This document shows positions 493 through 5,593 of a stretch of 64,000 nt of DNA, piece by piece. The translations under genes were made by a program, and so were the position numbers. Position 1 is the stretch's first letter, and each line of letters opens with the position of its first letter. The DNA comes from a virus: IMG/VR virus record IMGVR_UViG_3300022804_000001. One strand, given 5' to 3'. Under the pieces are notes generated by a model. The model ran no database searches. It was not told the origin of the DNA and worked only from the letters and a program-made list of their open reading frames with translations.

Positions 493-2067
493 CTACTCAG
501 GATCCGGAAAACCGTCATGAGAACCGCCGCGCGTTTCACAGGAATTGTTGTTGTTCGGATTATAGTGGTTCCCACACCAAGGACAGTAGTAACGCGACGA
601 CGTGCTTGACGTTGTACTACTACTCCCCACTGTCACCGTATAACTCGGCTCAACAATAGAACCATCCGACAATTGCGTATAAGCCGTGATAACATGATCA
701 CCCGACGCATAAGAAGGAATACTCCAACTGAACGACGCACTCGTGCTACTCCCATTCCCAGTGTCTGTCTGTTTCAGCAAACCTAAACCATCAATACCAG
801 GACCCGCAATATACCAATAAACATACTGATAACCAGACGGAACACTCACACCCGCAGTATGCGTACCCCCCGATGAAGCTGTATAACTACTACCAGAAGA
901 TGGGGATAAAGAAGCAGAGCCCGGCGTCGAAACCTTGGGCGTTGATGGGGTCGGCGTGGAGGGTGTTGATGGGGTTTGTGCCGTGCTGTCATACCCTCCA
1001 CGTGTCGTGCATTTTTTATTTGGGCATACATTACTTGAGCTGCATTGATAATACCACTCTTTACAAGGCATCATTGACTTTGTAAACCCGTAATACCATT
1101 GACCCGGACATTTCTTTATGTGAGATGCGATCGTCACTAAAGGTCGAGCATAAAACGGACTACCAGGTTCACTTTTTACTCGCGGACCATTGATCCCTGA
1201 CCCCCAAAGATATTCACGCGGACCTTTTTTACCGCAGCCTCCACGACATAAAACAAGTTTATGTGTTTCATATTCAGGGCAGTCTGGGTTTGAATCATTT
1301 GGACAATTCCAATACGTCCTATTATTGCAAGGAGACTCACTACAAGTCTCCAAATGCCCTTTATATCCGCCTGCTGATCCACCTTCAGATAAAGTCACGA
1401 TGTTATCAAGGCCATACTTAGAAGCACTGTAGACCGTGCTACACTTGGAATTACTACACTTCACCGATAGATTAGTATCAACGCCAATTTCATCCGATAG
1501 TATTTTACCTTTCTTTGTCGGTGTCATGTCATCTGATTTCGTTGTCGGTGAGTTCCATTTAGATTTATTATACGCATCCACATGAGCAATATAATGATCA
1601 TAGGCACTATCAACCAACTTAAACTGTGCAGCAACATCAACTTTTTTCTTCTGAATTTCAATCGTCTTTCCTATCAATGCTTTCTTCAAATCGAGATCGT
1701 CGGAAGCAGTAATTACTATTATCGACGCGTTCGTAGCTGTATCTTTAATGCTTCCCCATATAGCAAAATCCGTGGGAATCGCGTCACTTGCTAACTTGGC
1801 CGCCTCTTTTCTCATTGTAGACTTATTAGAATTGTACGAAACAGTTAATGCAGCACGTTCTGCTTCTAACACAATTAGATCGGCATAATAGATTATATAG
1901 TCATCTTTTTCAGTATCAAATTTACCATAAGCATCGTTCGCCCAATACACCGTATCGTTTACGCCTTTCTCAATATCATGAGAAAAGGATATTATCGGAC
2001 ATACGAAAAAAATAAATCCGAAAATAAAAAGAGTTTCGAAAAACCTGACAAACAATTTATTTTTCAT
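493..2067 (-). CDS. exported cysteine-rich protein with Pro/Thr/Ser linkers
   Basis: 524-aa ORF. Hydrophobic N-terminal signal/anchor (LFIFGFIFFVCPIISFS). More than 20 Cys clustered in the middle third. TPSTPSTPTPSTPKVSTP linker and Ser/Thr tracts. C-terminal CPWC motif. Confidence 0.7.
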   Translation of the reverse strand: MKNKLFVRFFETLFIFGFIFFVCPIISFSHDIEKGVNDTVYWANDAYGKFDTEKDDYIIYYADLIVLEAERAALTVSYNSNKSTMRKEAAKLASDAIPTDFAIWGSIKDTATNASIIVITASDDLDLKKALIGKTIEIQKKKVDVAAQFKLVDSAYDHYIAHVDAYNKSKWNSPTTKSDDMTPTKKGKILSDEIGVDTNLSVKCSNSKCSTVYSASKYGLDNIVTLSEGGSAGGYKGHLETCSESPCNNRTYWNCPNDSNPDCPEYETHKLVLCRGGCGKKGPREYLWGSGINGPRVKSEPGSPFYARPLVTIASHIKKCPGQWYYGFTKSMMPCKEWYYQCSSSNVCPNKKCTTRGGYDSTAQTPSTPSTPTPSTPKVSTPGSASLSPSSGSSYTASSGGTHTAGVSVPSGYQYVYWYIAGPGIDGLGLLKQTDTGNGSSTSASFSWSIPSYASGDHVITAYTQLSDGSIVEPSYTVTVGSSSTTSSTSSRYYCPWCGNHYNPNNNNSCETRGGSHDGFPDPE

Positions 2068-2081
2068 TATTCAAACCCCTT

Positions 2082-2747
2082 TTAGCGAGACATCTCATGA
2101 AATTCTGCTATTAATGCCCTTGCTTCCGCAAGTGTCAACGAACCATCTACAATCCCTGGAACAATATCGGCTAACGCCCCTGCTGCTTTTCTTTTCTGAC
2201 GCACCAAGATGATAGCCGACATTTTGATCCCCGCAGGAGGTGAGCTTTTATACATAGTATCAGCTTTCAATGTATAATACATCTCGCGTTCTTCAAAGGT
2301 GAGCGGGCGATTGTAGTGAAACTTCTTTCCATTGCTGCCCGAAGTATAAAATGGAGGAATATCGTCAGGATCAATATCCGCTGGCAGTTGTGGTAGTTGT
2401 GTAATATCCACCTCCCCTGCGACAGACAAATCCGGTGTGACAGGTTTAGACTGCGTGGTATCATCAGACACCTCAACAGGCTCAGGCGTTCCCTCCTGCC
2501 ACACATCAGGTGCGTCAATAGGCACTTCATGCCAATGGTCACCATGCAGCACCATCTTGAAGCCGTTTCTCGCGAGTGGCGGTTGTTTAGTTTTCTGCTT
2601 ATTCTGCTCTTCCAACAGTCTATTCGATTCAGCTAACTCTTCTTTGAGTTTCTGAAATTCAGCGCGTTCTTTCATAAACAAGAACACACCGGTAATACCA
2701 AGTAATAGAATGAGGGTAGCGATCCCCCAATACTTCTTATTTCTCAT
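2082..2747 (-). CDS. membrane-anchored protein with histidine-triad (HxxHxH) motif
   Basis: 221-aa ORF with AAGGAG RBS. N-terminal TM (WGIATLILLLGITGVFLF), then a coiled-coil segment. FKMVLHGDHWHEVPI matches the HGDH[YW]H..P histidine-triad signature of Pht-type zinc-binding surface proteins. Confidence 0.7.
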   Translation of the reverse strand: MRNKKYWGIATLILLLGITGVFLFMKERAEFQKLKEELAESNRLLEEQNKQKTKQPPLARNGFKMVLHGDHWHEVPIDAPDVWQEGTPEPVEVSDDTTQSKPVTPDLSVAGEVDITQLPQLPADIDPDDIPPFYTSGSNGKKFHYNRPLTFEEREMYYTLKADTMYKSSPPAGIKMSAIILVRQKRKAAGALADIVPGIVDGSLTLAEARALIAEFHEMSR

Positions 2748-3009
2748 GAGTTTTACTCCTTAAAATAAAAGAGTTATCCCTATACTTGCGTTAAGCAAGC
2801 AGGGTCTGTTTGTATACAATTATTGTAGTAATAGAGAGGACTTTGTAGTCTTGTCTCATATTGTGCTTCCTTAATATAACGAAGCAGGTTAATTATTTAG
2901 ACAGACTACAGAGATTCGAAAGGAAAGAGTATATATTATGCAATCTCTGTAGAGGTCGCTGGTCTCTATTACAAGTGACACAAGTGTCAGTAAGTGTTAT
3001 TATAGACAC

Positions 3010-3133
3010 CAGCGCTGTCAGGTCTGGTCTGGCAGTGCTGCGCATCGACGGTGTTAATTAGTAGTCACACTGTCGGTGCTACGCATCGACGGTGATCCCA
3101 TCACTGTCGGTGCGTTCTTAAAGCACCTCCGAC
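3010..3133 (+). promoter_or_regulatory. multi-hairpin structured RNA element (attenuator-like or ncRNA)
   Basis: Hairpin 3010-3021/3029-3040. Four 12-nt segments follow: S1 3042-3053, S2 3068-3079, S3 3083-3094, S4 3102-3113. S1:S2, S2:S3 and S3:S4 can all pair. Every non-Watson-Crick pair is G-T in the plus sense only. Confidence 0.5.
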
Positions 3134-3336
3134 GTAATCCACGCAACTCGTGAATTTCTAACATCTAATATGTATTGTAGAAAAAGTATTAAAAATAGTC
3201 AATACATTCCACAATTTACAAGGATTATACACTATTTCCATTTTTTACACAAGTTTTTTTGTAAATTTATATGAATTTGTGTTATATTATATAATATTTT
3301 AAGGCAAATATATGACAACAATTAAGGAGACTTATT

Positions 3337-3540
3337 TTGCCCCGTCTAAATACGAAAAAAATTGTTAAAGCATGTCAACGATCTTTTGCAGGTAACTCAG
3401 ACGAGGAAATATCAAAAGAACTGGATGTGCATCCCGCAACCATTAGCCGTTGGCGACAACTCCCTTTATGGAAACAAGTAGAAGAAAGTTTAATTGAGAA
3501 AGCAATTGATCAATATTCCGCAACGGAGGATGTGGAATAG
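3337..3540 (+). CDS. small helix-turn-helix DNA-binding protein
   Basis: 67-aa ORF with TTG start preceded by AAGGAG (3323-3328). SDEEISKELDVHPATISRWRQ is a typical HTH segment. Confidence 0.6.
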   Translation: MPRLNTKKIVKACQRSFAGNSDEEISKELDVHPATISRWRQLPLWKQVEESLIEKAIDQYSATEDVE

Positions 3541-3567
3541 TAAACACAATCAATCATCAAAAGTATT

Positions 3568-4074
3568 ATGTCAAGACGCAAAACACCCAGACTTTATGGT
3601 ATCGGCTGTAAGTTCATATTCCCCGGTGCGGTTATTTTAGATGGTCGTCTTAAACCTGACAGACCCAGAGTTGTCGGGGTTGTCCGGTGGTGTCCTCTCA
3701 ATGCCGGTTATGTTTTATGTCCATTTGTAAAACGTGCTTTTGTTTTTCGGACATCTTTTCCGCAATATTTCAAATCTCCACAGCGTGCGTGGGAGTGGTT
3801 AACACATCACACAACAGACTGGACTTATGGGAAATATCAAACATCGTGGCGACCGCTCACCGAACCTGTTTTACGAAATCGGAAAAGAATTCGATTTTTG
3901 ACAGACATTAGGTTGCGTCGAACTTTAGGTCAATTGCTTTTAGCGGGGATCTGTGCGTTTTGGAAACCAGAAAGTATGCTATTGGGTGTGCTTGTAAAGG
4001 TAGGGACAGTTGGGCTGGTATTGAGTGCTGCTTTAGATACATTTTGTTTATGGACAGATTATTTCAAGAAGTAG
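3568..4074 (+). CDS. hypothetical basic protein with C-terminal hydrophobic segments
   Basis: 168-aa ATG ORF. No obvious SD. Arg/Trp-rich with a C-terminal TM-like stretch (LLLAGICAFW...VGLVLSAAL). Confidence 0.4.
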   Translation: MSRRKTPRLYGIGCKFIFPGAVILDGRLKPDRPRVVGVVRWCPLNAGYVLCPFVKRAFVFRTSFPQYFKSPQRAWEWLTHHTTDWTYGKYQTSWRPLTEPVLRNRKRIRFLTDIRLRRTLGQLLLAGICAFWKPESMLLGVLVKVGTVGLVLSAALDTFCLWTDYFKK

Positions 4075-4606: not shown

Positions 4607-5593
4607 ATGAATAAAACTGTAAATAACGGTATAATCGATTCAAATTCATCTTCTCAACTCCCTTTATTCTCCCCAAATTCTGATCATTTAGACGACTCTA
4701 AAATCCAAGAATCGACGATGCAGGTGCCGTGTGGTGCTTTTAGCATATTCGATTTATCGTGTCATCGTTTGAATGAGTTTGATCGTGCTGTTTACTGGAT
4801 GATCAATGAGCATAGCAATTGGGATACCGGTATATCTCACGGTTTACCGTATCGTGTTTTGACAGATTTATTGAATGTGAATCATTCATCGCAAGTGAAG
4901 CGTGCTGTTCGTCATTTGATTGATGCGGGTTTTTTAGAGATTGTGGGTAATCGTCTGAGTGATGGAGCGAATATTTATCGTGTTATTCACCACAAGTGTT
5001 TACCGGATGAAGTTCCATTAGATAAAGATAATCGTCCTTTGAAGTGTGCTGTTCCTCGTGGTAAGGGTTCTGGATCATCGTTATTATCTAAGGGTGAGAT
5101 TAGTTGGCGTGAGTTTGTGCAGTGGATGGTCAATAAAGTTTCATCGGACTGGAGTACGGGTGAAGTTCTGATGACGGTTAATATGGCGAATGATCGTCTT
5201 AGGCTGAGTGGTCAAACGATATGTAATTCATTTAGGAGTTTGGAAGCGTCTGGTTTATTGGAGCGTATTTCAGCCAAGTTTCGTGCGAGTATTTTCCGTA
5301 TTTTCCCTAAGCCGTATCCAAAGCGTAAGGATCGTGCGGAGGATAAGGGAAAAAAGCCTTTGCCGAGGATAGGTGATTGGTATTATAGTTATAATAGGCG
5401 TTGGTGTTTTCATAAGGACAATTTTCATGTATTGAGGAAGGATGAGTTTGGGAAGTGGCGGGATAGTAGTATGCAGGAGTTGTATAAGGTTAATGTTACG
5501 ATCCACTGTGATTTTAATGATTATATGTCAGCCTATGCTTCGGAAGAGTTTTCTGATGCTCTTAGCGACTTGAGATTAGCCTTATTGAATTAA
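4607..5593 (+). CDS. putative replication-initiator-like protein with two winged-helix segments
   Basis: ATG at 4607 follows AGGAGA (4595-4600); the track start at 4562 is TTG. VKRAVRHLIDAGFLEIVGNR and FRSLEASGLLERISAK resemble wHTH recognition regions of Rep/DnaD-type initiators. Repeats lie upstream and an AT-rich region downstream. Confidence 0.55.
   Translation: MNKTVNNGIIDSNSSSQLPLFSPNSDHLDDSKIQESTMQVPCGAFSIFDLSCHRLNEFDRAVYWMINEHSNWDTGISHGLPYRVLTDLLNVNHSSQVKRAVRHLIDAGFLEIVGNRLSDGANIYRVIHHKCLPDEVPLDKDNRPLKCAVPRGKGSGSSLLSKGEISWREFVQWMVNKVSSDWSTGEVLMTVNMANDRLRLSGQTICNSFRSLEASGLLERISAKFRASIFRIFPKPYPKRKDRAEDKGKKPLPRIGDWYYSYNRRWCFHKDNFHVLRKDEFGKWRDSSMQELYKVNVTIHCDFNDYMSAYASEEFSDALSDLRLALLN

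Follow-up and report, generated by a model that had tools for sequence, protein, structure and literature searches.

Organization of the locus

The stretch of viral DNA that was analysed (64,000 nucleotides, here called the window) covers most of a ~71-kb temperate podovirus-like phage, in which the late genes are carried on the minus strand and the early genes on the plus strand, and which encodes an integrase and a sliding clamp. A cluster of hairpins lies between a leftward operon and the rightward genes. An earlier note on this DNA had placed it in a 590-nt divergent gap; the gap between the called genes was 589 nt (2748-3336), but it was not empty, as a 22-codon remnant ORF lies inside it on the minus strand. 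To the right of the element were a 67-aa HTH gene (3337), a 168-aa gene, and a Rep-like gene. No CI-type repressor was seen near the element in the window.

The leftward operon encodes two exported proteins, of which the 221-aa protein is type-II anchored and carries an HGDHWH motif. Homologues of the operon proteins were annotated as Poribacteria proteins, and the chromosomal contigs that encode them measured as much as 5 Mb. The 221-aa protein falls in a large Poribacteria family of type-II anchored proteins starting with M-R/N-x-K-x-Y/I-W-G (for example, at loci L135, L136, L146, and L150), and His-rich motifs (HGDHWH, HHHGDHDN, and SADHDN), which hint at metal binding, were observed in several proteins linked to the module described below. 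The remnant ORF corresponds to a small Cys-rich gene that had decayed in the window phage and in the IMG/VR contig L006, which was near-identical to the window within the element. In relatives and host copies, intact counterparts of 65-102 aa, beginning with MRRDY or MRQYY, followed the module. On the minus strand at 2778-2804, the SD of the 221-aa gene was immediately preceded by a hairpin (CCCUGCUUGC-UUAAC-GCAAGUAUAGGG) and a U-rich stretch that together resembled a terminator, and a comparable hairpin occupied the equivalent position in L106, L109, L114, and L119.

The features of the locus are listed from left to right, with the strand and, for the parts of the module, the type of evidence.

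493-2747, minus strand: leftward operon for exported proteins of 524 aa (493-2067) and 221 aa (2082-2747)
2791-2859, minus strand: remnant ORF of 22 codons (MRQDYKVLSITTIIVYKQTLLA, then stop), relic of a small Cys-rich membrane-protein gene
2900-3204: whole module of ~300 bp, with promoters, leader, and hairpins
2906-2952, minus strand: hairpin I2, 11-bp arms and 25-nt loop (repeat search, A-C polarity)
2957-3014, minus strand: hairpin I1, 12-13 bp arms (2958-2970/3001-3013) enclosing P(+) (repeat search)
2975-3003, plus strand: predicted promoter P(+), GTGACA-17-TATTAT with a TG extension (TGtTATTAT, 2995-3003) (promoter scan)
3010-3040, plus strand: hairpin A, 12-bp stem and 7-nt loop (fold, covariation, RNAalifold)
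3042-3079, plus strand: hairpin B, 12-bp stem and 14-nt loop (covariation, G-T polarity, RNAalifold)
3083-3113, plus strand: hairpin C, tandem duplicate of B, 16-bp stem and 3-nt loop (repeat search and fold)
3106-3133, plus strand: hairpin D, GGTGC/GCACC with an irregular extension (sequence)
3131-3165, strand not assigned: hairpin E, outer stem GACGT/ACATC and inner stem CCACG/CGTG (sequence and host copies)
3202-3174, minus strand: predicted promoter P_L, near-consensus sigma-70-type, TTGACT-17-TACAAT (promoter scan, 10/12 match)

The earlier note had read the hairpin cluster as hairpin A followed by four segments, S1 to S4, in which S1:S2, S2:S3, and S3:S4 could pair in a mutually exclusive manner. 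The sequence check found the arms of hairpin A at 3010-3021 and 3029-3040 and segments S1 (3042-3053), S2 (3068-3079), S3 (3083-3094), and S4 (3102-3113) with coordinates and sequences as described. The duplicated 19-mer (3035-3053 and 3076-3094) and the GGTGC/GCACC helix arms (3109-3113 and 3123-3127) were likewise in place, and all four distinct non-Watson-Crick positions were G-T on the plus strand. A repeat search of the element recovered direct repeats of 25 nt and 12 nt. When the segment 2990-3140 was folded, as the earlier note had proposed, the plus strand gave three long hairpins with a folding energy of -70 kcal/mol (z = -7.4; none of 200 shuffles was as stable), compared with -51.6 kcal/mol (z = -3.6) for the minus strand.

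The first codons of the remnant ORF (AGACUACAAAG in the leftward RNA; 2841-2851) were complementary to the 3' arm of I2 (2903-2913), and this arm could alternatively pair with the translation start region of the remnant ORF.

Copies in related phages

Eight distinct phage copies were compared: the window, L105 (an ENA contig), L106 and L109 (reached via Rep homologues), and L115, L116, and L118 (reached via homologues of the 221-aa protein), with two copies in L118. The leftward gene set was present in every phage relative. On the right, the window and L105 had an HTH gene, a LexA-like repressor gene converged on the element in L106, L109, L115, and L118, and L116 had host-like DNA, so that the tie to the first rightward early gene, drawn in the earlier note, did not hold among relatives. 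The region corresponding to 3337-4074 showed a mosaic swap of the HTH and 168-aa genes (plus strand) for the LexA-like (S24 peptidase) repressor gene (minus strand) in these same four phages.

L118 contained two full modules (5093-5269 and 2508-2689), each located before a leftward gene. The second module was upstream of a 207-aa gene, with a YWG-type membrane anchor start, which precedes the terminase gene, and the differences between the two copies of hairpin B were compensatory. In L106, two copies of a 22-bp direct repeat (4986-5040) were found immediately upstream of the -35 box of P_L, and such repeats were also present in L109 (4935-4965). Located by the 3' end of the LexA-like gene, they are candidate operator or activator sites.

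Hairpins A, B, and D were shared by the phage copies, and hairpin C was absent from L105, L115, L116, both copies of L118 (L118a and L118b), L106, and L109. Hairpin C represents a recent tandem duplication of 34-41 nt, which explains the existence of the S2:S3 alternative and makes the 1-2-3-4 topology a by-product. The 5' arm of hairpin D coincided with the 3' arm of the preceding hairpin in the window lineage, and in L106 and L109 hairpin D was a separate stem of 15-17 bp with two to four G-T pairs and no overlap with B.

Several sequence searches gave no further phage copies. A blastn search of the gap against a phage database gave no match, and an IMG/VR scan with the 19-mer returned one true relative and seven chance matches in GC-rich coding DNA. 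IMG/VR scans with the 221-aa protein, the Rep protein, and two hairpin patterns yielded no additional copies. A metagenome scan for two GTGCTRCGCAT boxes 26-34 nt apart gave 94 loci, all of them unrelated repeats or chance matches. The terminase-anchored search led to one Poribacteria contig and two distant phages, all without the element.

A multi-copy module in Poribacteria

A covariance model was composed of the -10 box of P(+) and hairpins A and B. It found no further copy in the window, 12 matches in the Poribacteria MAG that holds L110, and ~520 matches in 92 of 151 Poribacteria genomes. There were up to 23 matches per genome, scattered over complete chromosomes. The terminase of the window's phage family was absent from three Poribacteria genomes with 12-23 copies. 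The element is therefore a multi-copy host module and is not phage-specific.

The whole architecture recurred in 72 copies that were oriented and inspected, and a ribosome-binding site and ORF followed P_L in 68 of them. Most of these ORFs began with a hydrophobic N-terminal segment, as judged by eye and not by a predictor, which suggests that the downstream genes mostly encode secreted or membrane-anchored proteins. Pfam named only two of 29 downstream genes, one as a DNA methylase and one as a WD40 protein. The right-hand neighbours of host copies were arbitrary. In the host copies inspected, hairpin B was followed directly by the D/E region or by P_L, with no hairpin C between them.

When 20 paralogues of one chromosome, all before unrelated downstream genes, were compared, conservation was limited to a block of ~300 bp, with a GACAG box left of I2 at one end and the -35 box of P_L at the other. 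The ends of the block were short, contained TTGACA, and faced inward; nothing longer was seen. In genome G031, seven copies were duplicated along with a small gene for a Cys-rich membrane protein (74-102 aa, starting MRRDY) and a member of the 221-aa family. The loop length of I2 ranged from 13 to 117 nt across copies. In the G031 copies L157, L159, L160, and L163, the I2 loop held a nested structured insert of ~60-90 nt (GGGGAATGCCTAAAG...GCGAATGCGC...), which recurred elsewhere in the same flanks and resembles a second small dispersed repeat.

The Rfam search gave no match over the whole window and a chance-level hit only (E = 0.13) in 2850-3260, in line with the earlier note, which knew of no described riboregulator with such a sequence. 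Among open-access full texts, none was found that paired Poribacteria with 'antisense RNA'.

Covariation and strand polarity of the hairpins

Compensatory changes supported the helices of hairpins A and B in both sets of copies. In the eight-copy MAFFT alignment (A6), which was not fitted to a structure, 93.6% of the cells were paired, eight of 24 pairs changed on both sides, and none of 500 shuffles reached the covariation score. The pairing dropped to 20-60% in slid controls on this alignment, and RNAalifold returned the same two hairpins, A and B. Among 71 distinct copies, 93.5% of the cells of A and B were paired and 11 of 24 pairs changed on both sides (171 cells; 0/500 shuffles), although these pairing counts are inflated because the 71-copy alignment (A8) was fitted to the model structure. 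For hairpin B, 97.9% of the cells were paired, seven of 12 pairs changed on both sides, and the only mismatches were G-T, with no A-C. In the stem of hairpin A, L109 had a C-G to T-A change, L106 had lost both bases of one pair, and other copies had G-C/T-A and A-T/G-C swaps. Loop lengths varied from 6 to 15 nt and more, which fits hairpins and not protein half-sites of fixed spacing. The earlier note had held that repeats conserved as DNA with no compensatory changes would speak against an RNA; compensatory changes were what the comparison revealed.

A mismatch read as A-C on the plus strand is a G-U pair in a minus-strand RNA, and the wobble cells therefore report which strand is paired as RNA. 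In hairpins A and B, 25 G-T and 3 A-C cells were counted in the eight phage copies. The corresponding numbers in the 71 distinct copies, leaving out the doubtful outermost pair, were 222 and 9, and all nine A-C cells were at the helix base. Together with the compensatory changes, the deleted base pair, and the variable loops, this polarity bears out the proposal of the earlier note that selection acted on a plus-strand RNA and not on double-stranded DNA. The mean folding energy of the A-B region was -36.8 kcal/mol for the plus strand and -25.7 kcal/mol for the minus strand, and the plus strand was the more stable in 64 of 70 copies.

The block to the left had the opposite polarity. The arms of I1 occurred as 32 distinct arm pairs among the 71 copies, all complementary, with 68 A-C and 4 G-T cells in the plus-strand reading. 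For I2, the counts were 0 G-T and 9 A-C in the phage copies, and 6 G-T and 46 A-C in 28 copies of the CTACAG type, in which I2 could be delimited reliably. These opposite polarities indicate selection on the plus-strand RNA for A, B, and D and on the minus-strand RNA for I1 and I2, with the change of polarity at the conserved -10 box of P(+). Judged from the alignments, such a pattern would be impossible for sites in double-stranded DNA and possible for two overlapping, opposed transcripts. Hairpin E, which only some subfamilies have, gave 11 G-T and 7 A-C cells.

G-U pairs were kept at three fixed stem positions in 40 to 62 of the 71 copies, and in hairpin A they were conserved at stem positions 5 and 9. 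This retention suggests that selection favoured hairpins whose fold is strong in the antisense RNA but weak in the mRNA. The sequence of stem A was conserved beyond what pairing needs, which could reflect a protein partner.

Two facing predicted promoters

The pattern TGnTAnnAT was present in all eight phage copies and in 69 of 71 distinct copies. Conservation within the P(+) box followed the extended -10 pattern, with TG, T-12, A-11, and T-7 nearly invariant. The predicted start of P(+) was at ~3009-3012, at most a few bases away from the first base pair of hairpin A. With the extended -10 box located just upstream, the plus-strand RNA would begin at the base of hairpin A, which places this hairpin at its predicted 5' end.

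P_L was found in every phage relative as TTGACA, TTGACT, or TTGATA, a spacer of 17 or 18 nt, and TATAAT, TACAAT, or TAAAAT, despite diverged surroundings. On the minus strand, 41 of 71 copies had a match of at least 11/12 within 125 nt of hairpin B. None of the 71 had such a match on the other strand, shuffles gave 0.4%, and the spacer was 17 nt in 47 of 52. The predicted start of P_L was near 3167, from which the leftward RNA would cross E, D, C, B, and A, then I1 and I2, and continue into the leftward genes. Hairpin E was located at the predicted 5' end of this transcript, and hairpin I1 would be able to form solely in the leftward RNA.

The evidence for both predicted promoters is the conservation of their motifs. 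As positioned, P(+) is a promoter of antisense type, on the opposite strand and inside the predicted transcribed region of its target. A scan of 2600-3500 for a plus-strand terminator (a hairpin with a U-run) found none, and none was found on reading the host copies. The plus-strand RNA of the window might continue into the HTH gene.

Comparison with known regulatory systems

Cis-antisense RNAs transcribed from face-to-face promoters include those of P22 sar/ant, lambda OOP, coliphage 186 pR/pL, and Anti-Q of pCF10 prgQ/prgX. The module resembles these phage and plasmid switches in several respects: the opposite-strand promoter is in the 5' part of the transcription unit, the putative antisense RNA is short and rich in stem-loops, the convergent promoters are 100-200 bp apart, and the element is carried by a temperate phage, by the repressor region. 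The covariation and the G-T excess in A and B (222 versus 9 cells) likewise place selection for stable stem-loops on the antisense strand. Unlike those switches, the module occurs up to 23 times per host genome before unrelated genes, has no recognisable terminator for the antisense RNA, and contains leader hairpins I1 and I2, one of which encloses the antisense promoter. It also differs in being common to a sponge-symbiont phylum and its phages.

When compared with type I toxin-antitoxin systems such as hok/sok, the module shares the multiple copies in chromosomes and prophages, the long folded 5' leader, a structured (here putative) antisense RNA over that leader, and a small membrane-protein ORF that is often first. 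Unlike in those systems, the first ORF encodes 65-102 aa with an exported Cys-rich part, heads an operon, and is decayed in the window, and other copies of the module precede a DNA methylase gene, a WD40 protein gene, and others. The regulated gene was not a small hydrophobic toxin ORF. The Correia elements of Neisseria and the pneumococcal BOX elements are similar in having hundreds of intergenic copies and stable RNA hairpins, and they can supply promoters. They differ from the module in that its orientation is fixed with respect to the downstream gene, its architecture is conserved with two opposed strand polarities, and its ends are short and TTGACA-bearing, with no long terminal inverted repeats seen. 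As in trp-type attenuators, 1:2, 2:3, and 3:4 pairing is possible, although in the window alone; unlike in attenuators, there is neither a leader peptide nor a terminator U-tract, and segments 3 and 4 are a private duplication.

Alternative explanations

We consider it somewhat better than an even bet that the element is a cassette in which a cis-antisense RNA and convergent promoters control the leftward operon, and that the phage captured it together with this host-type operon. The retained G-U pairs and the architecture of the module favour this reading. One other explanation, which we regard as unlikely, is a free-standing multi-copy family of small RNAs, in which the P(+) RNA (A-B-D) acts in trans elsewhere or binds a protein and its location opposite P_L is a secondary matter. 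The sequence conservation of stems A and B across paralogues, a promoter and 5' hairpin of its own, and up to 23 copies per genome would suit such a family, but the RNA always belongs to one kind of module, where it faces P_L and precedes a gene of fixed orientation; its loops are free in sequence and length, which leaves no conserved seed, and no terminator was found. A slightly poorer prospect is a dispersed repeat, selfish or neutral, comparable to REP, BOX, Correia, or MITE elements, which would carry its promoters and hairpins by chance and have no dedicated regulatory role. It would account for the hundreds of copies, the discrete ~300-bp block with unrelated flanks, the short inward-facing ends containing TTGACA, and the nested repeats in I2 loops. 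It is at odds with the constant orientation towards the downstream gene, seen in 68 of 72 copies, with covariation, strand-specific wobble, and both promoter motifs kept across deep divergence, and with the G031 copies, which were duplicated with their genes and not as bare elements.

The attenuator-like model of the earlier note, in which a plus-strand leader would control the rightward early operon (HTH gene at 3337) through exclusive pairings of S1 to S4, was largely refuted by comparison, and we now hold it to be very unlikely. The P(+) transcript does point at the HTH gene with no terminator between them in the window and L105, S2:S3 pairing is possible in the window, and D and the 3' arm of B or C are in competition in the window lineage. 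Nevertheless, hairpin C was confined to the window and L006 and was absent from at least six of eight distinct phage-contig copies. No U-tract comes after the hairpins (the sequence behind C is GTTCTTAAAGC), no plus-strand terminator was detected, and no leader peptide preceded by an SD was apparent. The sole plus-strand ORF across the region was a TTG-started frame of 66 aa (2861-3061) that begins upstream of P(+), with no SD apparent. In addition, the right-hand gene was the converging LexA-like repressor gene in L106, L109, L115, and L118 and was arbitrary in the host, and other promoter-like sites were located nearer the HTH gene (3259-3295). The hairpins are probably the antisense-RNA part of the cassette and not a phage attenuator. 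Operators, iterons, or cruciforms acting as DNA for a phage or host protein, such as an HTH or LexA-like repressor, are highly improbable. Palindromes do lie in the control region beside repressor-type genes in several phages, and the stem sequences are well conserved; against this, the spacing of the arms varies (loops of 6-15 nt and more), the mismatches are strand-specific with opposite polarity in adjacent blocks, which double-stranded DNA does not explain, and copies exist in genomes without these phages.

Three further candidates were rejected. Hairpin promoters of the N4 type are not the answer, as searches of PHROGs, Pfam, and PDB sequences matched the 2,690-aa protein to no RNA polymerase. 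The reading of CTGT...CAG in stem A as a LexA box conflicts with its variable spacing and strand-specific mismatches. An invertible promoter in I1 was rejected because only 28-38 nt separate the arms and the polarity indicates RNA.

Proposed mechanism

From the structure, strand polarity, promoter motifs, synteny, and copy distribution, we infer that both RNAs are made and that the antisense RNA acts on the leftward operon. In this reading, the segment 2900-3204 is a copy of a regulatory cassette of ~300 bp that is indigenous to the genomes of Poribacteria, and the phage would have captured the cassette and its operon as cargo from the host or would share them with it. Transcription from P_L would yield the mRNA for the leftward genes, whose leader would be some 300-420 nt long. 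P(+), located in the loop of leader hairpin I1, would produce an RNA that starts with hairpin A and carries A, B, (C), and D, and this RNA would be the exact complement of the initial ~150 nt of the P_L transcript.

The hairpin-capped and probably stable antisense RNA, together with convergent transcription, may hold down or gate the leftward operon. One possible route is the formation of an RNA duplex that leads to processing or decay, along with opening of the base of I1, since the duplex would cover the 5' arm of I1. A second possible route is promoter interference. The conserved G-U pairs would keep the hairpins strong in the antisense RNA, and the mRNA segment complementary to them would fold weakly and stay accessible for pairing. 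The sign of regulation may also be the opposite, with the antisense RNA protecting the mRNA.

Implications

With these comparisons, the hairpin cluster of a single phage becomes part of a large RNA or regulatory family for which neither an Rfam match nor a description in open-access papers was found. The adjacent blocks of opposite G-U polarity, split at a conserved promoter, provide an unusually clean case for two opposed transcripts read from sequence. Both predicted promoters resemble ordinary sigma-70 promoters, which makes the cis-antisense model directly testable in E. coli reporters.

A wider reading, which we offer as speculation and judge rather unlikely, is that the module serves as a phylum-wide 'plug-in' switch before 10-20 accessory loci per genome and has been borrowed by temperate phages for cargo genes. 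The loci under such a switch would mostly encode predicted secreted or surface proteins, including eukaryote-like WD40 proteins. The combination of interference and antisense pairing would make these loci switch-like, and surface and secreted proteins could vary from cell to cell without DNA rearrangement.

Poribacteria are an uncultivated phylum of sponge symbionts, for which no description of regulatory RNA was found. The phage carries a control cassette of host type in front of an exported-protein operon of host type, and the cis-antisense reading would bear on how the phages of these symbionts express their cargo.
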